Source: an uncultured Candidatus Saccharibacteria bacterium (GTDB lineage: Bacteria; Patescibacteriota; Minisyncoccia; Phycocordibacterales; UBA9973). Taken from it: 31,138 nucleotides of DNA. Each line of letters begins with the position of its first letter. The stretch's first letter is position 1. Location: NCBI GenBank assembly GCA_964586755.1, contig CAZPHJ010000003.1, positions 1 to 31,138 on the forward strand, read 5' to 3'. Below the pieces are notes generated by a model. That model made no database searches, was not told where the DNA came from, and was given only the letters and a program-made list of their open reading frames with translations. Of the stretch, positions 1,846 to 29,640 are shown in pieces. A program made the position numbers and the translations under genes.

Positions 1846-4080
1846 ATGGCAAAAAAAACTGAAGAAATTGAAGAGGAAGAAGATATTGAAGTTGAAGAAA
1901 AACCCGTCCGTAGAACGAGCTCCAAAAAGAAAAAAATTGATGAATCAAAGCGACTCAAAGATGAGACAAGACACACCGTAGTTGGAGTCATATTTCTCGC
2001 ACTCGCACTTTTTTTTGTAATGGCAGGATTCGGTTCTGGTGGACCCGTTGGAGCTGGTGTACACAGCGCTGGAAAGTATTTGTTCGGTGTTGGATATGTC
2101 CTCCTTCCGATCTTGTGTGCATTTCTTGGTATCACTTTTGTACGCACAGGACGACCCCACATCGCACTCACTCAAGGTGTAGGTTCGATACTATTTTTGA
2201 TGGGGACACTCGGCCTCATCGACATCGCAAGTAATCCAAATCATGCCGGTGGAGTCATCGGAAAATTTTTTGGATTCATCTTCGAACGACCGTTTGGAAC
2301 ACTTGGTGCGATTCTTTTTCTTGGAGCATTTCTCATCATTTCGCTCGTCGTACTTTTTGATACCCGTCCTACTCTTTCAATAGTCAACGGTCTTATCGAA
2401 AGATGGGAGGCGCGTCGCGATGCACGCAAAGCGCAAGCACTCGCCAACAAGCGCCTTGTGGTCAATGACAATACACAAGCTCCAGAACCACAACCTGTAC
2501 CAAAATCTCAACAAATTGATGATGAGGTAAGTCCATCAGGAAACGAATCATTGATGGATGAATTGGAAATCTTACCAAAGCAAAAAATCCGCAAAGCGTA
2601 TTCATCATATGTTCCACCACCACTCGATCTTCTCAAACGTGACTCCGGCAAGCCGAACGTGGGTGATGTCAAAGCTAACGCAAACATCATCAAACGCTCA
2701 CTTTCAAACTTCGGCATCGAAGTAGAAATGGACGAGGTAACGATTGGTCCGACGGTCACAAGATATGCACTCAAGCCTGCTGAGGGCGTCAAACTTTCTC
2801 GTATTGTCGGACTCCAAAACGACCTCTCTCTTGCACTCGCCGCCCACCCAATCCGTATCGAAGCACCGATTCCAGGCAAGAGCCTGGTAGGTATTGAAAT
2901 CCCGAATAAAGCGAAATCGATTGTAGGCATGGCTACACTTTTGTCTGATGATAAGTTTAAAAATTCAGAGAAGCCGCTCACTGTGGCGCTTGGACGAGGA
3001 ATCAACGGTATGGCGAATTTCGGAAATCTTGCCAAGATGCCTCACGTGCTGGTAGCCGGTGCAACTGGATCTGGAAAGTCCGTCACCATTCACTCTATTG
3101 TTGTATCCCTCCTCTATCGTAACGGACCTGACGAGATGCGCTTCATCATGATCGACCCGAAGCGAGTAGAGCTTACTTTGTATAAGAACATCCCTCATCT
3201 TCTCACTCCCGTCATCACTGATGCCAAAAAAGCCATCCTCGCTCTCAAATGGGCAGCCAAGGAAATGGATCGTCGATACGACATTCTCCAGGCCGAATCT
3301 GTGCGTGACATCGAAAGCTACCACAAGACTGTGGTAGGTGATACAAAAAAAGGCAAACCAGATGAAGTTACAGCTGATCCAATGCCATATATTGTCATCA
3401 TTATCGACGAATTGGCTGATATCATGCAGAGTTATCCGCGAGAACTCGAATCTGCGATTGTGCGCCTTGCTCAGATGTCGCGTGCGGTCGGTATCCACCT
3501 CCTCCTTTCGACACAGCGTCCGTCGGTAAACGTTATCACTGGTCTCATCAAAGCCAACGTGCCAGCTCGTATCGCCCTACAGGTGTCTTCTCAAATCGAT
3601 TCACGTACCATTCTTGATGCTGCAGGCGCCGAAAAACTCCTCGGTGCCGGAGACATGCTCTATGCGGCTGGAGACAAGCCACAACCGGAACGTCTGCAGA
3701 GTGCCTTTATTTCTGAAAGCGAAGTTAAGGAAATTGTAAAGTTTATTATTGAACACAATGAATCAGATGGTGCCGATGAAATTGTGCTTTCCGGCTCTGT
3801 TTCGGCCGACAAAACCATCTTTGACGCCAATCTTGATTCTGATGGCGATAATGACGACGAGCTCTACGAAGATGCTCGCATGACCGTCATTGAGGCTGGT
3901 AAAGCTTCCACTTCTTACCTGCAACGCAAGCTCGGTGTCGGATATGCACGTGCTGCTCGTCTCATCGACATGCTCGAAGAGCGCGGAGTTATCGGACCAG
4001 GAAGTGGTGCAAAACCACGCGAAGTGCTCATCAAACAAGGTGACGGAATTATGGATGTTCCTGCGGAAATGCAAAATTAA
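1846..4080 (+). CDS. ftsK: FtsK/SpoIIIE DNA translocase
   Basis: N-terminal 4-TM domain; Walker A GATGSGKS; IDPKRVEL; IIIDELAD; STQRPSVNVITG; gamma domain LQRKLGVGYARAARLID. ATG 1846 preferred over GTG 1837. Confidence 0.98.
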   Translation: MAKKTEEIEEEEDIEVEEKPVRRTSSKKKKIDESKRLKDETRHTVVGVIFLALALFFVMAGFGSGGPVGAGVHSAGKYLFGVGYVLLPILCAFLGITFVRTGRPHIALTQGVGSILFLMGTLGLIDIASNPNHAGGVIGKFFGFIFERPFGTLGAILFLGAFLIISLVVLFDTRPTLSIVNGLIERWEARRDARKAQALANKRLVVNDNTQAPEPQPVPKSQQIDDEVSPSGNESLMDELEILPKQKIRKAYSSYVPPPLDLLKRDSGKPNVGDVKANANIIKRSLSNFGIEVEMDEVTIGPTVTRYALKPAEGVKLSRIVGLQNDLSLALAAHPIRIEAPIPGKSLVGIEIPNKAKSIVGMATLLSDDKFKNSEKPLTVALGRGINGMANFGNLAKMPHVLVAGATGSGKSVTIHSIVVSLLYRNGPDEMRFIMIDPKRVELTLYKNIPHLLTPVITDAKKAILALKWAAKEMDRRYDILQAESVRDIESYHKTVVGDTKKGKPDEVTADPMPYIVIIIDELADIMQSYPRELESAIVRLAQMSRAVGIHLLLSTQRPSVNVITGLIKANVPARIALQVSSQIDSRTILDAAGAEKLLGAGDMLYAAGDKPQPERLQSAFISESEVKEIVKFIIEHNESDGADEIVLSGSVSADKTIFDANLDSDGDNDDELYEDARMTVIEAGKASTSYLQRKLGVGYARAARLIDMLEERGVIGPGSGAKPREVLIKQGDGIMDVPAEMQN

Positions 4081-19345: not shown

Positions 19346-21267
19346 TATTGAGTCACTGTTTGTCCATTTGGTGGGAACCCTGGCTCGTTACGAAGTTGGG
19401 TTGATGTTGCTCCTCGGCTCGTAGTGAGCATTACACCGGTAAATGTATCTTTTGCCGATACGGTCGTGTCTAAAACAAGTTTTGGAACACTACCCACTTG
19501 AGTTTCTGACGGATTGAGGCGTACCTGGAACGACACCTTACGAGGAGATCCGCTCGTACCAGCACCAGCAGGCACGGTTCCGATTTTCCATCGAATCGTA
19601 CTTGTTGTTGCGTCGTATTCTACAGACTCTCCAGATGGAGAAATCGTTCCAACCCAATCTACATATGTCGGCAAAAGAGCAGTAGCAAAACCGTCAGTGA
19701 GGGCATTTGCCGAATTGGTTACAGTCCAAGTAACAGTATACGTCGTAGGTTGATTGGCTTTCGGTGGAATTGGTCCAGTGTTTGAAAATGGTCCAGTATT
19801 ATATGAGGCATCCGGAGAAAAACCAAGATCAGAATTTATTACTGCAGTCTTTTCTTCGAAATCAGCAACCTCACTTACAGCTCCCCCTTGGTCTGGTTGT
19901 TTGCCTTTTATACTTACCGATACTTTTACAGAAGGTTTAGAAATTGTTCCCCCAGTAGACCACAGCGGCAAAACTTTGAATGAAAATTGTAAAATCCCCT
20001 GGTCTGATGGTTCAATCGAAGCAAGTTCGGCAACAGATGTCTTGTTCCAAGTTATCGTTTTGTCCAAAGAATTATAAAAACCTTTTTGCGCATCGACTGA
20101 TTTTCCATCGAGCGCATTCCCTGACAAATGAACAATCACTGAAGCGTCCGTTACGCGAGTTGGTAGATTGTTTGTGTAGTTTACAGTGACCGAAACATTT
20201 CCAGCACTACCGACTGGGGTTGGATCAGTCGTCGAGCTATTAATAGAAAGACGCGCAGCAAGAAATGGCTTAACGAGTGATACTGTTTGAAGCAGTGAGT
20301 TGTACGTCACACCAATTTTGGAATTATCAGTCGTACTTACTGCACCTGTGTACACATGAAAAGCTCTATCTTCCCCGTCCTGTCCATACACAGTACCAGT
20401 AATCACTACGTCGCGCTCCGCTCCAGGTGCAAAATCACCAAGGTTCCATACATTATTCGAAGCAGTTGCTTCTGGGACTGATTTTTCAAAATTAAATCCA
20501 GTTGGATATTCGACATGGAGCAGCATTCCAGAAAGCGTATTCTTACTATTTGAAACCGTCTTGACAGTAAAGGTCAATTTTTGATTTGGGGTTATACTTT
20601 TTGGACCCTCAACAGAAAGTGATACTGGTGCGGAATTGATAGTCACCACAAACGAAGATTTTTTTACAAAAATTGCGTTTGAGCCGCGGAGGCGATACTG
20701 CAATGTGAAGTCAACACTCTTTGTGCTCCCTTGTTCGCCGAACAACGTTACAAAAAGACTCTTGGTGGTATTTCCACCAGCAGGAATCGTGCCTAGTGAA
20801 TTCAATTCACGAACGTGTCCGACACTGTTGCTGGCAGTTCCACCATTATCATACTCGACAAAAAGATCGGCGAGTTCAAGCGCACTCGCGTTCTTGTTTG
20901 AAACTTCAACCTGCAAAGGAAGTTCCTCACCGCCAGCGGTAAATGAATTACCAAGAACATTAATTTCAATATTGGCATTCGAAACAGTATTTCCTCCTGT
21001 AAAAAACATTACTGTAGCAAAAAGTGCAGCAAGCACTGCAAATCCAAGTGAAAAATAAAAAAACTTCTTAAAAAAAGAGTGGTGAATTTGTGTTTTTTCT
21101 GGTTTTGATTTTGACATATCTGCTTCCCAGTCTTTCTTAACCGGTGTCGGATTCAAATGAAGACTGTCGATGCGTCGCATCACGCGTCCCGCAAGATCAC
21201 GCCGATACAGGCGTGCATTTACGTCATCTAAGTTATGCGGCTCGTTTGGATTTCCCTGGTCTGACAT
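19345..21267 (-). CDS. Single-pass membrane protein with several Ig/DUF11-like beta-sandwich domains
   Basis: Cytoplasmic N-terminus, one TM (FFYFSLGFAVLAALFATVMFF), repeated V.N....L / W.LG...PG / YT..W.V.N / ..W.IG motifs. Confidence 0.85.
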   Translation of the reverse strand: MSDQGNPNEPHNLDDVNARLYRRDLAGRVMRRIDSLHLNPTPVKKDWEADMSKSKPEKTQIHHSFFKKFFYFSLGFAVLAALFATVMFFTGGNTVSNANIEINVLGNSFTAGGEELPLQVEVSNKNASALELADLFVEYDNGGTASNSVGHVRELNSLGTIPAGGNTTKSLFVTLFGEQGSTKSVDFTLQYRLRGSNAIFVKKSSFVVTINSAPVSLSVEGPKSITPNQKLTFTVKTVSNSKNTLSGMLLHVEYPTGFNFEKSVPEATASNNVWNLGDFAPGAERDVVITGTVYGQDGEDRAFHVYTGAVSTTDNSKIGVTYNSLLQTVSLVKPFLAARLSINSSTTDPTPVGSAGNVSVTVNYTNNLPTRVTDASVIVHLSGNALDGKSVDAQKGFYNSLDKTITWNKTSVAELASIEPSDQGILQFSFKVLPLWSTGGTISKPSVKVSVSIKGKQPDQGGAVSEVADFEEKTAVINSDLGFSPDASYNTGPFSNTGPIPPKANQPTTYTVTWTVTNSANALTDGFATALLPTYVDWVGTISPSGESVEYDATTSTIRWKIGTVPAGAGTSGSPRKVSFQVRLNPSETQVGSVPKLVLDTTVSAKDTFTGVMLTTSRGATSTQLRNEPGFPPNGQTVTQ

Positions 21268-23875: not shown

Positions 23876-26800
23876 TTACACTTTTTCAATTACAATCTCA
23901 CTTCCGGCGAATGTAACACTCTCTGCAAGTACGGTTTTTTTCAAATCACCTTCGAATCCAGCGACTGTATCTTTGGCATTTTCTGGAAGTGTGAGGGTTA
24001 TGACATCGCTTGGAGTAAGTCCTTGTTTCTTTCGAGTGTCTTGAATTGCGCGCACAAGCTCACGATACTCCCCTTCACGCTTGAGCTCGGGAGTGATTTC
24101 CGTATCAAGTTCCACCTCACTTTCAATTGCAGCATCTTGAACTATTTCTTTAACATTCAATTCATCTTTCAAAATTTCATAGTATTCGACTTTCAACTTT
24201 TCACTTTTCACTTTCAACTTGTTTAGGGGTTGTCGCACAGCAAACTTTGCTTTCTGTCGAGCTTCCATTCCAAGCGTCACAGTTTCGCGAACTTTTTGCA
24301 TTTCTTCCAAGACTTTCTGACTTTCGACTTTTGACTCATATTCTGGCCAATTTTCAAAATACACGCTCTTCTCTCCTCCGAGTCGAAGCCAAATATCCTC
24401 TGCCGCAAATGGTGCAAATGGCGCCATGAGCTTCGCTGTAGTTTTCAATACAAAATACAATGTCCGCTTTGCTTCCGCATCGCCATCTTTCATACGATCA
24501 CGACTGCGTCGCACATACCAAGTCGAAAGATCATCAATGAACTCTCGAAGTGCGCGTACTGGTTCGAGCAGTTTGTAATTATCGAGATTCTCCGTCATCG
24601 TCATTGTAAGCTGGTTGAGACGAGCAACAATCCATTGATCGAGGATGTTTTCTGACTGAGCATATTCCCCACTTTCGAGCGCTGTGTCGCGATAGAGCTC
24701 ATAAAAAGCGAGTACGTTATAGAGCAAGTTGAATACTTTGTTGTGGAGTTCCGCAACAGTCTTCTCGTCGAAGTTTTTTGATTCACCTGGCTGGTTCACC
24801 GAGTACATCCACAAGCGAAGCGTATCTACTCCGTATTTTTCAATCATCTCCCACGGGTCAACAATGTTTCCAAGTGACTTACTCATCTTCTTTCCTTCTG
24901 CATCCAGAATGTGTCCGAGACAAACTACATTCTTATATGCGAGTCCGCGACCCATAAGCATTCCAATAGCGTGGAGTGTATAGAACCATCCGCGAGTTTG
25001 GTCGATTGCTTCACAAATAAAGTCTGCCGGATATGCAATCTCTTTTGTCGCAAATGGATAATGATCTTGTGCAAACGGCATCGCACCTGAGTCGAACCAG
25101 ACGTCCATCACTTCATTCACACGCTTCATCGGCTCGCCATTTTCAGAAACGAGTTCTACATGATCGATATATGGTCGATGTAGATCAAGTTCCCAATTGT
25201 GATTGTGCGGGAATGGTACATACGGAACCTCACGCACTTCGGCATTTTCAAAATAGTGAAAATCTTTTTTGTTCTCAATCATCTTGAGTGATTCCTCTGC
25301 GCCAAATCCTTGAATACCAGCCATAAGAAGCCAAGATGGTCCCCCATGACTCACGATAAGTACTTTGCGGTTCTGGAATTTGATCTCAACATCATGTATA
25401 AAATCCATCATCCAACCTTTTACCGTGTTGTATGATTCTCCTCCTTCTGGACCATTGTAAAAATTTTCTACCGTTTTTGGAAAATCTTCATGATATTTAC
25501 TCCATGGGCCTTTGTTATATATTCCAATATCCATCTCGCGAAGACGTTCGTCAAAAAGCATCTCCACTTCCCCGCCGAGTCCTTCGCGGATAATGTCCGC
25601 AGTCTCTCGAGTGCGAACGAATGGCGATGCGATTATGAGATCAATCCCCAATTCCTTGAGTTTTGAAATCTGGTCGGCGACTTGTTTACGACCAAGCTCG
25701 GTGAGGTGCACCGGCTCGTTTGGATCAGCACTCGCCATACCTTTTAGATTATGATCTGCTTCTCCGTGGCGAATAACATGGTATATATTACCAGATTTTT
25801 TGGCTTTCTTTTTCATTTCATCCAGCGAGCCAATCACTTCGATTTTTCCTGATTCTGTCATCCAGATTGGAAGTGGTGTTCCCCAGTATCGTTCACGAGA
25901 AATCGCCCAATCCTTAATATCTTTTAGCCAATCGCCAAAACGACCATCACGGATATATGATGGCTCCCAATTTATTTTTTTGTTTTCCTCGATGAGCCCC
26001 TCTTTAATCTTTGGATCACTCATGCGGATATACCAAGAATCTCGCGCGTAATAGATGAGCGGAGTCTTACAGCGCCAACAATGTGGGTATGAGTGTTCGT
26101 ACTTTTCTTTTTTAAACAAGAGTCCGCGATGTGCAAGGTCCTTGATGATGTCAATTGCAACATCCTCGTCTTTTACAAATCGTCCTTCGAGAAAATCTGT
26201 GCCAGCGATGAATGTTCCATCGAGCGCCACCATATGATGCTTCGGCAGTCCGAGCTTGGTTCCGAGTTCGAAGTCATCTGCACCGTACATTACGGCTGTA
26301 TGAACAACACCAGTTCCGTCAGTCGTAGTAACAAAATCTGCTGGATATACCTTGAATGCTTTTTCGAGTGAAGCTTGTCCTTCAATTTGAGTTTTGAGAT
26401 AAGGATAGAGCGGTTCGTATTCAAACCCGATAAGGTCCAAGCCTTTCATTTTTTCTACAATTTCAAAACCTTCTGGAAGCACACTAGCGCGCGCTTCGGC
26501 GAGAATCAAAAATTCTTCACCAACTTTTACTTTTACATATTCAATATCATTCCCCACTGCAAGCGCGACGTTGCCTGGCAATGTCCATGGAGTTGTCGTC
26601 CACGCAAGTATGTATGTATTTTCCGGACTTTCAACTTTCGACTTTATAACTTTGAACTTGGCCGTGACCGACAGGTCACGGTCGTCCTGATATCCCTGTG
26701 CAAGTTCGTGCGACGAAAGCGCAGTTCCACAGCGCGGACACCATGACACAATACGATAGTCTTTGTAGACGAGTCCTTGATCGTTTACTTTTTGCAACAC

Positions 26801-27286
26801 ATTCCACACAGACTCGATATATGAGTTGTGATACGTCACATACGGATTCTTTTGATCCACCCAATAGCCGATACGGTCGGTAAATTTTTCCCACAAATCT
26901 GTGTATTGCCAAACGCTTTCTTTACACTTGTCGTTGAACTTCGCGATACCATATTCTTCAATCGCTTTTTTGGAATTGAGGCCGAGCGCTTTTTCTACTT
27001 GGAGTTCCACTGGAAGTCCATGCGTATCCCATCCCCCTTTTCGACGAACATGGAATCCCTGCATAGTTTTATAGCGAGGAATCGCATCTTTGAATGCACG
27101 CGCTTCGAGATGGTGAATTCCTGGTTTACCATTCGCAGTTGGTGGACCTTCGAAGAATACAAACTCACCTTTTGGCGAATCTTTTTTGAGTGTCTCCTCA
27201 AAGACATTATTCTCCTTCCAAAAACCGAGAACTTTTTCTTCTCGTTCTGCTGCGGCTGATTTTGGCTTATTTTCAGGTGTTTCCAT
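23876..27286 (-). CDS. ileS: Isoleucyl-tRNA synthetase (type 2) with an inserted histidine-phosphatase domain
   Basis: EGPPTANGKPGIHH, GWDTHGLPVE, WTTTPWTLP, HSYPHCWRC, WAISRERYWGTP, DVWFDSG, EAIDQTRGWF, KMSKS. Insert approx. 25225-25790 carries RHG...SP..R..ET...E...SHG. Confidence 0.98.
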   Translation of the reverse strand: METPENKPKSAAAEREEKVLGFWKENNVFEETLKKDSPKGEFVFFEGPPTANGKPGIHHLEARAFKDAIPRYKTMQGFHVRRKGGWDTHGLPVELQVEKALGLNSKKAIEEYGIAKFNDKCKESVWQYTDLWEKFTDRIGYWVDQKNPYVTYHNSYIESVWNVLQKVNDQGLVYKDYRIVSWCPRCGTALSSHELAQGYQDDRDLSVTAKFKVIKSKVESPENTYILAWTTTPWTLPGNVALAVGNDIEYVKVKVGEEFLILAEARASVLPEGFEIVEKMKGLDLIGFEYEPLYPYLKTQIEGQASLEKAFKVYPADFVTTTDGTGVVHTAVMYGADDFELGTKLGLPKHHMVALDGTFIAGTDFLEGRFVKDEDVAIDIIKDLAHRGLLFKKEKYEHSYPHCWRCKTPLIYYARDSWYIRMSDPKIKEGLIEENKKINWEPSYIRDGRFGDWLKDIKDWAISRERYWGTPLPIWMTESGKIEVIGSLDEMKKKAKKSGNIYHVIRHGEADHNLKGMASADPNEPVHLTELGRKQVADQISKLKELGIDLIIASPFVRTRETADIIREGLGGEVEMLFDERLREMDIGIYNKGPWSKYHEDFPKTVENFYNGPEGGESYNTVKGWMMDFIHDVEIKFQNRKVLIVSHGGPSWLLMAGIQGFGAEESLKMIENKKDFHYFENAEVREVPYVPFPHNHNWELDLHRPYIDHVELVSENGEPMKRVNEVMDVWFDSGAMPFAQDHYPFATKEIAYPADFICEAIDQTRGWFYTLHAIGMLMGRGLAYKNVVCLGHILDAEGKKMSKSLGNIVDPWEMIEKYGVDTLRLWMYSVNQPGESKNFDEKTVAELHNKVFNLLYNVLAFYELYRDTALESGEYAQSENILDQWIVARLNQLTMTMTENLDNYKLLEPVRALREFIDDLSTWYVRRSRDRMKDGDAEAKRTLYFVLKTTAKLMAPFAPFAAEDIWLRLGGEKSVYFENWPEYESKVESQKVLEEMQKVRETVTLGMEARQKAKFAVRQPLNKLKVKSEKLKVEYYEILKDELNVKEIVQDAAIESEVELDTEITPELKREGEYRELVRAIQDTRKKQGLTPSDVITLTLPENAKDTVAGFEGDLKKTVLAESVTFAGSEIVIEKV
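24188..24222 (-). repeat. In-frame heptamer array inside ileS (encodes KLKVKSEKLKVE)
   Basis: Plus strand gactttc-aactttt-cactttt-cactttc-aacttgt. Confidence 0.85.
24311..24339 (-). repeat. In-frame 7/8-mer array inside ileS (encodes ESKVESQKV)
   Basis: Plus strand gactttct-gactttc-gactttt-gactcat. Confidence 0.75.
26626..26661 (-). repeat. In-frame 7/8-mer array inside ileS (encodes KFKVIKSKVES)
   Basis: Plus strand gactttc-aactttc-gactttat-aactttg-aacttgg. Confidence 0.8.
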
Positions 27287-27291
27287 GATAC

Positions 27292-27320
27292 TTGACTAAA
27301 TTATTAATAAGGTGTATAAT
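27292..27320 (+). promoter_or_regulatory. Near-consensus sigma70 promoter, antisense to the ileS leader
   Basis: TTGACT-N17-TATAAT, starting 6 nt from the ileS start codon. Confidence 0.8.
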
Positions 27321-27342
27321 AAGTAGAATTAAAACTTGTTTT

Positions 27343-27534
27343 ATGACAACAACTCAATTTTGGATACTGTTTTCTGTTTGCTGGACAGGCTTTGGCCTAA
27401 GTACACTTAAGTCATCAAAAGAATGGAAGTATCCGCCGCCCTGGCTCCTTGCCCGACTAACTGTTGTTGCATTATGGCCAATATTTGAATTTGAAATATA
27501 TGTTTTTTTGCCGAAAAATAATACGGAAAAATAA
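27343..27534 (+). CDS. 63-aa small hydrophobic (membrane) protein, antisense within the ileS leader
   Basis: MTTTQFWILFSVCWTGFGLSTLKSSKEWKYPPPWLLARLTVVALWPIFEFEIYVFLPKNNTEK*, with two hydrophobic segments, a promoter upstream and a terminator immediately downstream. Confidence 0.58.
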   Translation: MTTTQFWILFSVCWTGFGLSTLKSSKEWKYPPPWLLARLTVVALWPIFEFEIYVFLPKNNTEK

Positions 27535-27535
27535 C

Positions 27536-27716
27536 AAAAACCCGTCCTCGCATCACGACAAAAGTCATGATTGCAAGGACGGGTTTCTTTTTTATATAAG
27601 AAATCGTGGTACCACCTTCTTTCCCCTCTGGTATTCCTTCGGGCTTATTTATAGGGGTTCTAGGTGCTCTACAGCATTTCTTCCCCAAGCTCCAGGGTGA
27701 TAGCCCTTTCATCGCT
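27536..27716 (-). ncRNA. T-box riboswitch (Ile, AUC specifier) with ultrashort Stem I and a transcriptional terminator
   Basis: Stem I AGC-GAUGAA-AGGG-CU-AUC-A-CCCU-GGA-GCU (27716-27688). Stem II with S-turn GGGG-AAGAA-AUGC..GCAC-CUAGAA-CCCC (27686-27654). T-box AAGG-UGGU-ACC-ACG (27618-27605) pairs with CGU-CCUU (27581-27575). That strand also forms the terminator AAACCCGUCCU...AGGACGGGUUU followed by UUGUUAUUUU. Confidence 0.92.
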
Positions 27717-27872
27717 TCTATTCTCATAATACTAAAATTTGCATGTAAGTAAAGAGAGGTATAAAATTTTCTGCAAAGCTCCTCCCACCTTATATACTTC
27801 AACTTGAACATAAGCCATAACTATCTAGGTGCCAATTCGCCTCAATTGCCACCCACAACTTAAGAGCTTTTG

Positions 27873-27900
27873 AAGCTTCGATGACCCGTCACCGAAGCTT
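27873..27900. terminator. Hairpin downstream of argS
   Basis: aagcttcg-atgacccgtcac-cgaagctt, with a T-run on the plus side. Confidence 0.5.
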
Positions 27901-27933
27901 TTTTATTTGTATTTCTAAAACCAGTAAGAGAGT

Positions 27934-29640
27934 TTACATTTTCTCTGGTACTTCAATACCAAGAAGATACAGACCATTTTTCATAGTTTTGAGAAACGAT
28001 TCAACGAGTGCAAGTTTGTATGACGAAGCTTCATCAGTCTCGTCGATGATTTTTCCGGTTGCATACCAACTATTAAATAATTGTCCAAGTTCCACCAAAT
28101 AGCCCACAACGTGATGCGGTGCCCATTCGTTGATTGATACAGTTACAACATCTGGAAAACGAGAGATCATTCTTTCAAGGTTTGTTGTTATCCAACCGGA
28201 AGGAATATTTGCATTCGGATTCAATTGGACTTCTTTTGCTTTTTGTAAAATTGAATTTGCTCGAACAGCCGTGTACTGCAGATACGGACCTGAATCTCCT
28301 TCGAAAGAAAGTGATGTCTCTGGATCAAAGTTAATATTCTTTCCGGCTGTCGCACGAAGAATCGTGAATTTAAGCGCAGCGATAGCAATCGCATCTATCG
28401 TACCCTTGTCAGCTTCTTTATGAAGCGACTTTGATTGAAGAGCGACTTCTTCAACGAGAGTATCGACGATGGTCTGCGCGAGTGGAACGCCTCCAAGACG
28501 TGACGACATCTTTTGTCCTTTGAAACTCATGCGTCCGTGGGTTCGATGTACAGTCTTCTCCTTCCATTCACTATGAACTTTTCCAGCGGCAGTACTTACA
28601 ACCTTGAAATATTCTGTCTGTTCATGGTCGGTAATGAAAATTGAAAGATCAGGAGAATACTTTTTGAACTTGAGCGACATAAGGCCAACATCTTTGGCTT
28701 CATATGTCGGATACCCTTCTTTATTGATAAACACACGGGTATGCAGTCCATCCTGTTCCCCTTCATAAATGTATGCGCCTTCTGATTGTTTAAAAACTGT
28801 AGGCGTATTATCACGGATTATTTTCGCACCTTCGACACCTGCTTCGCTTTCAAAAATAAATGCGTCGAAATGCGAACCGAGGCGTGCCGTTATTTCTTGA
28901 AAATACGTAAGATTAATTATTTTTCCTTCTTCATAAACTTGGTATGCGATACTATCCACATCCTGATCGTATAATTGAGCAGTAATTGCTTTTATTTCTT
29001 TTGCAACTTCTGGATCTTCTTCGTATGCTTTTGTTCCACGAACATAACAATCTCCTAAATAAGCTAGCGCACTAAGCGTCGAATCAAATGATTTGATTTT
29101 TTCCACTCCGCCTTCCTGCAAAATAACCCAGACGGCCTTTGCAATACCCAAAGAGATATCGGATGGGTATGAAATAAGTGTCACCTCAGCACCCGAGTAT
29201 CGAGCAATTCGAGTAATTGATTCCCCGATCGCATTGTTCATCACATGCCCAATATGAAAAGGTTTGAACAGATTTGGGCTTGAGTGTTCAACAAGAATTT
29301 TTTTACCAGCGTAAGAATTATTTTTTCCCCAATTTGAATCTACCAAAACATTGGCAATTGCTTTTCCAAAAAATTCTTTCGAGAGATAGAAGTTAATAAA
29401 TCCTGGACCAGCGATTTCGATTTTTTCGATTTCGGTTGGTTTGTTCTTTTCAATCTCGGCGACGATTTTTTCAGCGAGAGCGCGAGGGCTTATCTGTGCA
29501 GCTTTGGCGTACGCCAAAGCTGCACTCGTTGAATAATCACCATTCGTAATTTCTGCCGGGTGCTCAAGCACAACATTCTCAGCTTCGATGCCGAGATTTT
29601 TGAGTGCATTTTTTACAATTTGTTCGAGTGTATCTTTCAT
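27934..29640 (-). CDS. argS: Arginyl-tRNA synthetase
   Basis: GDYST, IEIAGPGFINF, EHSSPNLFKPFHIGH, KMSSR, FEGDSGPYLQY..VRANSIL. Confidence 0.98.
   Translation of the reverse strand: MKDTLEQIVKNALKNLGIEAENVVLEHPAEITNGDYSTSAALAYAKAAQISPRALAEKIVAEIEKNKPTEIEKIEIAGPGFINFYLSKEFFGKAIANVLVDSNWGKNNSYAGKKILVEHSSPNLFKPFHIGHVMNNAIGESITRIARYSGAEVTLISYPSDISLGIAKAVWVILQEGGVEKIKSFDSTLSALAYLGDCYVRGTKAYEEDPEVAKEIKAITAQLYDQDVDSIAYQVYEEGKIINLTYFQEITARLGSHFDAFIFESEAGVEGAKIIRDNTPTVFKQSEGAYIYEGEQDGLHTRVFINKEGYPTYEAKDVGLMSLKFKKYSPDLSIFITDHEQTEYFKVVSTAAGKVHSEWKEKTVHRTHGRMSFKGQKMSSRLGGVPLAQTIVDTLVEEVALQSKSLHKEADKGTIDAIAIAALKFTILRATAGKNINFDPETSLSFEGDSGPYLQYTAVRANSILQKAKEVQLNPNANIPSGWITTNLERMISRFPDVVTVSINEWAPHHVVGYLVELGQLFNSWYATGKIIDETDEASSYKLALVESFLKTMKNGLYLLGIEVPEKM

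Follow-up and report, generated by a model that had tools for sequence, protein, structure and literature searches.

The window analysed here is a stretch of 31,138 nucleotides from an uncultured Candidatus Saccharibacteria bacterium (contig CAZPHJ010000003.1 of assembly GCA_964586755.1). The source genome, G000, comprises 0.69 Mb in 81 contigs, and DNA of the window was recovered in wastewater and activated-sludge sequencing runs. The single-copy ileS gene lies on the minus strand behind an isoleucine T-box leader, and the spacer between the two, which extends for 254 nt beyond the terminator stem up to the ileS ATG, is occupied by a small gene on the opposite strand, here called the mini-gene. 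The initial annotation had placed in this spacer a plus-strand TTGACT-17-TATAAT promoter, a 63-aa ORF and a T-box terminator facing both ways, and each of these was found where it had been described. The features of the locus are as follows.

23876-27286, minus strand: ileS, encoding IleRS of 1136 aa (ORF list; Pfam tRNA-synt_1 and Anticodon_1)
27287-27322, plus strand: conserved block with the mini-gene promoter (-35 box TTGACT at 27292-27297, -10 box TATAAT at 27315-27320)
27343-27534, plus strand: mini-gene of 63 aa plus stop codon, a member of the (Y/W)xGxG...LWP family with two predicted helices
27538-27586, both strands: two-way intrinsic terminator, identical to the T-box terminator hairpin (folding against shuffles)
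27584-27595, plus strand: U-tract of the mini-gene, which on the minus strand is the A-run of the antiterminator apical loop
27528-27721, minus strand: Ile T-box leader with an ultrashort Stem I (specifier 27701-27699, T-box motif 27617-27606)
27540-27528, minus strand: U-tract of the T-box terminator, at the end of the leader
27726-27753, minus strand: likely promoter of the T-box and ileS, TTTACT-16-TATTAT (9/12 match)
27934-29640: argS

The leader scored 27.8 bits against the Rfam T-box model (RF00230, gathering threshold 93), the low score being due to an ultrashort Stem I in which 76 model positions are replaced by 6 nt. Its T-box motif, GGUGGUACCACG, with the UGGNACC bulge, is the only one in the whole genome. 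The apical loop of Stem I presents an AUC specifier followed by A, a purine, and this Ile codon fits the downstream ileS; the segment CGUCCUU is common to the antiterminator and terminator folds. In the actinobacterial ileS T-boxes (Sherwood et al. 2015, cited in PMC7583486), ileS is likewise controlled through a short Stem I without a distal platform whose apical loop carries the Ile specifier, but these T-boxes act on translation by hiding the Shine-Dalgarno sequence. The present leader instead forms canonical terminator and antiterminator folds, with an A-run that enlarges the antiterminator loop and functions for the opposite strand. Relatives carry TTTACA-17-TATTAT or TAATAT promoters ahead of their T-boxes. 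The metatranscriptome evidence comprised a single unstranded 180-nt contig from one run, which covered 27583-27762 and was identical to the window, and no contig over the mini-gene. Since the contig reaches some 40 nt further upstream than the predicted T-box start, either the true start or the strand of that RNA is uncertain.

On the far side of the leader, a second hairpin at 27873-27906, right after the argS stop codon, is followed on the plus strand by a T-run (TTTTTTATTTG), and the argS strand lacks a U-tract. The hairpin has the appearance of another plus-strand terminator, protecting argS against antisense transcription.

Coding status and protein family of the mini-gene

An ATG-initiated ORF of this length arose in 0.4% of 5000 dinucleotide shuffles of the window spacer. 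For the spacers of G000, G013 and G004, which are mutually unalignable and each filled by an antisense ATG-ORF, the corresponding shuffle probabilities were 0.004, 0.001 and 0.005. An exhaustive HMMER search of 1.8 billion representatives with the 63-aa protein (P0001) returned one true homologue (P0002), a protein of 57 aa with 49% identity (E value of 3E-6), encoded on a 1-kb metagenome contig with the same order of T-box, terminator, ORF, promoter and ileS. The two reading frames were 57, 71 and 35% identical at the first, second and third codon positions, respectively. Profile searches of whole genomes then added members in three genera of the window's family and two genera of a second family belonging to the same taxonomic order, again with the same arrangement of elements. 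The resulting protein family consists of two-helix proteins of 55 to 65 aa from at least 10 Saccharibacteria genomes of the two families, every member being located in the slot between T-box and ileS. M1, G16, G18 and W45-P46 are invariant, with a (Y/W)xGxG motif closing helix 1 and an LWP motif inside helix 2.

The initial annotation had suggested the dN/dS of the ORF as a check, and this could be obtained from a congeneric pair (G502/G453). The mini-genes of this pair were 66, 89 and 52% identical at the three codon positions, with a dN of 0.23 and a dS of 1.7, a pattern which shows purifying selection on the mini-gene. For ileS in the same two genomes, dN was 0.025 and dS 0.47; by the comparison of dN values the mini-protein is thus constrained, yet evolves about 10 times faster than IleRS. 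On the strength of these comparisons the 63-aa ORF is assigned as a real gene. The opposite reading, that it is a chance open frame and that only an antisense RNA, or nothing, matters at this site, could draw on a public gene-position index that holds no gene with exactly the 63-aa product and on a word-index protein search that returned nothing for P0001 or for the ORF of G013. The shuffle tests, the homologues with invariant residues and the third-position bias of the substitutions bring it close to refuted.

AlphaFold models consisted of two helices with a kink at the WP motif (pLDDT about 66), and the loop between the helices is basic in most family members. The 63-aa protein is probably a membrane hairpin, with the basic loop predicted to be cytoplasmic. 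Pfam, NCBIfam and PADLOC gave no family match for any of nine members, an alignment-based search from P0001 and P0002 recovered only P0002, a search of the Atlas returned only unnamed clusters, and no paralogues of the mini-gene were found in G000. Several candidates were rejected. The second HMMER match, P0003, is a 499-aa repetitive protein, and an order-wide match in G117 has an internal stop and no nearby T-box. Family membership was not demonstrable for the ORFs of G013 (hhalign probability 4.7%, shuffle z 0.9) and G004 (hhalign probability 1%, shuffle z 3.4). An origin of the mini-gene as a decayed or inverted SemiSWEET gene (PF03083) was likewise discarded, with no Pfam match and an hhalign probability of 7%, and the spacers gave no sense-strand tblastn signal of a SemiSWEET remnant.

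Elsewhere in G000, contigs C7 (promoter at 20275, minus strand) and C45 (promoter at 3401, plus strand) carry other ORFs of 62 to 63 aa, unrelated in sequence to P0001, each with two hydrophobic segments and a promoter matching 11 or 12 of the 12 consensus positions.

A conserved slot with a two-way terminator

The hairpin at 27538-27586 folds on the plus strand with -28.6 kcal/mol (z -8.3) and is followed by TTTCTTTTTT at 27584-27593; on the minus strand it folds with -39.4 kcal/mol (z -10.6) and is followed by the U-tract of the T-box. None of 200 shuffles folded as well. In all slot-bearing T-boxes, the antiterminator loop was enlarged and contained 8 to 9 A residues in the 10 nt preceding the terminator stem on its 5' side, whereas relatives with the T-box abutting ileS had short loops with 4 to 6 A, the exceptions being G012 and G010 with 8 A.

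The A-run alone was then used as a blind predictor in a sample of 101 genomes of the family, 72 of which had a T-box motif and 13 of these the A-run. All seven A-run genomes that had not been examined previously proved to have a gap of 209 to 269 nt containing a convergent ORF of 50 to 70 aa with the same promoter. No convergent ORF was found in any of the nine controls in which the ileS start was resolvable; four more controls were left out because the ileS start was unresolved inside the fetched stretch. Relatives with the T-box directly adjoining ileS, which the initial annotation had recommended looking for, do exist, since the gap was 0 to 57 nt in seven of the nine controls; in one of the other two it was 145 nt without an antisense ORF, and one carried a sense-strand SemiSWEET gene. 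Overall, A-run and convergent gene occurred together in 17/17 slot-bearing genomes and 0/9 controls, among genomes that are related rather than independent and are spread over several genera in two families. This comparison shows the T-box terminator to be co-adapted to serve both strands via the A-run in the antiterminator loop.

The promoter of the slot is similarly uniform. In the window, TTGACT-17-TATAAT matches the consensus at 11/12 positions and was the top promoter in a 2-kb scan, and its -35 box is 5 nt from the ileS ATG. Throughout the slot members the -35 hexamer, TTGACA or TTGACT, is 1 to 5 nt from the ileS start codon, the -10 box is TATAAT-like, and the 16- to 17-nt spacer varies in sequence, so that hexamers and spacing are what is kept in all slot-bearing genomes. 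The ORF begins 15 to 38 nt after the -10 box, and the reverse complement of the T-box motif follows 73 to 110 nt past its stop codon. Between G000 and G013, the promoter block (35 nt) and the 3' half of the T-box with the terminator (about 120 nt) were both 100% identical, while the fourfold-degenerate sites of ileS were only 61 to 68% identical. By this measure the T-box is under strong purifying selection. The convergent layout of T-box and gene recurs in 17 genomes and one metagenome contig; the slot, comprising promoter, mini-gene and two-way terminator, is what has been conserved as a unit.

Replacement, gain and loss of the cargo

Between their identical blocks, the inserts of G000 and G013 were no more similar than shuffles (z 0.6 for DNA, z 0.9 for protein). 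Identical flanks around an interior of shuffle-level similarity indicate that the insert was replaced and did not drift. Different cargo was also found in other relatives, with another ORF, of 56 aa, in G004, an ORF of 70 aa and two helices in G485 and G494, and ORFs of 53 and 50 aa in G470 and G478, respectively. In G441 (L320:545-727) and G479 (L321:539-730), which belong to two other genera, the slot encodes a soluble cysteine-containing protein of 61 to 64 aa; the two versions were 60% identical, with codon-position identities of 73, 71 and 38%, a coding signature. In another sequencing run, a 3' end of the G013 type was found next to the same terminator. Since relatives keep the slot filled with exchangeable mini-genes, the arrangement is retained and not accidental.

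Among the 72 genomes with a T-box in the family sample, 13 had the slot, and so did 2 of 401 genomes sampled across the order. In G012, the TTGACT-17-TATAAT promoter and the terminator have been retained, but they enclose no ORF. In a different sample, a DNA contig with flanks about 98% identical to the window carries 133 nt in place of 391 nt (27264-27654), and therefore represents a near-identical strain without the insert. Being so easily lost, the slot cannot be essential for the control of ileS. In G261 (L300:6589-7967), the ileS start and the antisense promoter are present twice, on the two copies (95% identical, 1306 nt apart) of a 73-nt direct repeat; the interval contains a 118-aa plus-strand ORF and a Bro-N gene in fusion with roughly the first 10 codons of ileS. 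T-box read-through in G261 would need to cross two antisense genes.

In L269 (G008), L274 (G006) and L333 (G440), the junction is occupied by a sense-strand SemiSWEET gene of 84 to 86 aa (Pfam MtN3_slv, E value of 5E-9). Its position between the Ile T-box and ileS places it under T-box(Ile) control, and it may encode an isoleucine-related transporter. Inverted or direct repeats around the insert were limited to short AT-rich matches of doubtful meaning, and the IleRS N-termini were too short for a tree that resolves gains and losses. A pattern for Firmicutes T-boxes in general, run against metagenome and genome contigs, returned almost nothing useful.

Relation of the slot to ileS expression

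A consensus scan of the spacer found no minus-strand promoter, although a weak ileS-proximal promoter could escape such a scan, and no -10 box before ileS was conserved across the slot-bearing genomes. In G000, 6% of the starts have a Shine-Dalgarno sequence compared with a background of 7%, and a T/A/T signal is seen at -12, -11 and -7, which suggests that many mRNAs of this genome are leaderless. In a genome that does not use Shine-Dalgarno sequences, their absence before ileS or the mini-gene means nothing. Because the T-box is under purifying selection and no promoter was found close to ileS, the ileS mRNA is probably made by T-box read-through across the mini-gene and its promoter, in antisense orientation. 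The initial annotation had alternatively suggested that the insert uncoupled ileS from its T-box. In such a case, ileS would have its own promoter in or beside the insert, and the T-box would be a relic or solely the terminator of the mini-gene. A leader of about 430 nt is indeed unusually long, the many apparently leaderless genes with TAnnnT at -12 to -7 imply that promoters close to start codons are common, and the T-box of G004 (L263) has about 150 nt of GGGGAGG/CCCCTCC repeats inserted after the Stem II region, ahead of the T-box motif. Uncoupling is nonetheless unlikely, and by our estimate very much so, given the perfect conservation of the T-box 3' half where neutral sites have diverged by more than 30%, together with the two negative promoter results above.

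Our working model, which we consider moderately probable, is that an independently transcribed two-helix membrane-protein gene occupies a conserved slot in the ileS leader and that the two transcription units interfere with each other. The near-consensus sigma-70 promoter, pointing away from ileS, would drive a mini-gene of 50 to 70 codons up to the T-box terminator. With charged tRNA-Ile, both transcripts would end at the common hairpin, their overlap would be limited to that hairpin, and the mini-gene would be freely expressed. Uncharged tRNA-Ile would stabilise the antiterminator, so that polymerase from the T-box crosses about 250 nt antisense to the mini-gene and its promoter before entering ileS; the overlap would then be full, and the read-through ileS mRNA would double as an RNA antisense to the entire mini-gene. 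Collision of polymerases, occlusion of the promoter and cleavage of the duplex by RNase III, for which the genome has two homologues (PF14622) above the cut-off, would make the two outputs reciprocal. Expression of the mini-gene would thus fall during isoleucine starvation, and its strong convergent promoter would exact a toll on the induction of ileS. The excludon-like character proposed in the initial annotation is supported by anatomy and evolution, namely by the mini-gene lying between the T-box terminator and the ileS ATG with no intervening minus-strand promoter found, by the recurrence of gene, promoter and co-adapted terminator in two families, and by purifying selection on the T-box.

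Two other accounts give the mini-gene a different standing. It may be a passenger, in that the junction between the conserved T-box 3' half and the ileS start is a permissive, recombinogenic spot where small accessory genes are swapped by homologous recombination and borrow the terminator, while their expression has no link of any consequence to the regulation of ileS or to isoleucine. The slot is shared by at least six unrelated types of cargo, and interchangeable cargo that includes a soluble type suits a parking place as well as it suits a regulator. The sharp edges of the G000/G013 replacement, the variable presence of the insert between near-identical strains, the duplicated slot of G261 with its Bro-N insertion and the SemiSWEET genes at the same junction all favour this account, and in a published survey 107 of 15,851 T-boxes were placed so as to act in antisense, which was not an enrichment, some of them being attributed to insertions (PMC9943018). 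Against a mere passenger, the promoter-bearing cassettes are without exception convergent, with the -35 box always 1 to 5 nt from the ileS ATG, the terminator is specifically adapted for both directions, and read-through over a strong convergent promoter could hardly be without effect. We regard this account as possible but not probable. The type I toxin-antitoxin logic which the initial annotation had also raised fared less well, and we think it rather improbable. Here the small membrane protein would be toxic, and the convergent T-box RNA would restrain its mRNA. As in par/Fst of pAD1, the terminated leader would pair with this mRNA through the complementary loops of the terminator, and the read-through RNA would pair with it over its full length, so that toxin output would be tied to tRNA-Ile charging. 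The layout of convergent promoters with a common two-way terminator is that of par(pAD1) (PMC7472228), with the T-box leader in the place of a dedicated antitoxin sRNA, and the protein is small, hydrophobic, fast-evolving, patchy and easily lost; the nearest Pfam-bearing Atlas cluster was GhoT/OrtT at 0.82, too low to count as a match and a lead only. Nevertheless, none of the nine members matched a toxin family in Pfam, NCBIfam or PADLOC, the protein has two helices with conserved GxG and WP motifs and not a single helix, the 5' end of its mRNA (first 94 nt) was no more structured than shuffles (z +0.82), the genome holds no paralogues, there is no dedicated antitoxin promoter, and G441 and G479 have a soluble protein in the same slot.

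More speculatively, and with less confidence than we give the passenger account, the leader could be a cassette-exchange platform without an integrase, in which cargo is swapped by homologous recombination between a fixed promoter and the T-box terminator, expressed when tRNA-Ile is charged and silenced by read-through. Besides being the on-switch of ileS, the T-box would then be a starvation off-switch for rotating micro-proteins, or the antitoxin RNA of a new type I-like class of toxins.

Riboswitch-controlled antisense RNAs, excludons and noncontiguous operons are already established (PMC7154746, PMC11034616), and our literature search found no paper joining T-box riboswitches and Saccharibacteria. 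The closest parallels are the B12 riboswitch/AspocR pair of Listeria monocytogenes and the S-box antisense RNA of the Clostridium acetobutylicum ubiG operon, in which a terminator-type riboswitch likewise faces a convergent gene (PMC7154746; PMC9943018) and ligand-controlled read-through yields an RNA antisense to it, as proposed here. In our case, the read-through RNA would also be the mRNA of the normal target of the switch, ileS; furthermore, tRNA-Ile is sensed by a T-box, the convergent gene is an exchangeable mini-gene, and the terminator is two-way and shared. In noncontiguous operons and excludons such as menE-menC-MW1733-ytkD of Staphylococcus aureus, an opposite-strand gene is likewise embedded in a transcription unit (PMC7154746, PMC11034616, PMC12288877), the long transcript is both coding mRNA and antisense RNA, and mutual exclusion via interference and RNase III is expected. 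There, the embedded gene lies between coding genes, whereas here it is flanked, within the 5' leader, by a riboswitch and the one gene of that riboswitch, read-through would be conditional, and the arrangement recurs with different cargo. The par locus of pAD1 (Fst RNA I/RNA II) likewise combines convergent promoters, a two-way terminator, complementary stem-loops and a small hydrophobic peptide (PMC7472228), but the mini-gene has no sequence relation to it, no direct repeats, no 5' sequestering structure and two helices instead of one, and its partner RNA is a T-box leader with a job of its own. SraG, likewise encoded on the opposite strand within a housekeeping gene's regulatory leader (rpsO-pnp of Escherichia coli), affects that gene by direct antisense pairing (PMC5029454); it is treated as a non-coding antisense sRNA, whereas the unit described here encodes a conserved protein and the overlap would be gated by a riboswitch. 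The present case differs from these systems in the proposed dual role of the read-through RNA as mRNA and antisense RNA, the recurrence across families with a co-adapted terminator, the rotating cargo, and the combination of an ultrashort Stem I of the actinobacterial type (PMC7583486) with a transcription terminator.

Riboswitch leaders are usually viewed as private to their gene, but in these genomes a backwards gene with a promoter of its own repeatedly separates the tRNA-sensing switch from its essential synthetase gene, and the antiterminator loop of the T-box has been reshaped so as to terminate the gene on the opposite strand. If the reciprocity proposed above holds, a single T-box would turn one signal into two opposite decisions, switching ileS on and the micro-protein off. 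As a simple sequence rule, an A-run on the 5' side of the terminator stem predicts a hidden convergent small gene, which gene callers may overlook. The slot also adds an uncatalogued micro-protein family and a recombination hot spot to Saccharibacteria (CPR), a lineage in which gene regulation is almost unstudied.

IleRS itself varies in these genomes. In the genus of L261-L274, its N-termini are of two types, GPPTANGKPGIHH and GPPFATGLPHYGH, which are about 50% identical. Both stand behind the same kind of Ile T-box, which suggests that the gene was replaced downstream of a retained leader. Residues 504-666 of the window's IleRS (25289-25777, minus strand) form an inserted histidine-phosphatase domain (Pfam His_Phos_1, E value of 2E-31), and the IleRS of G261, a genome of a different family, has the same His_Phos_1 insertion.
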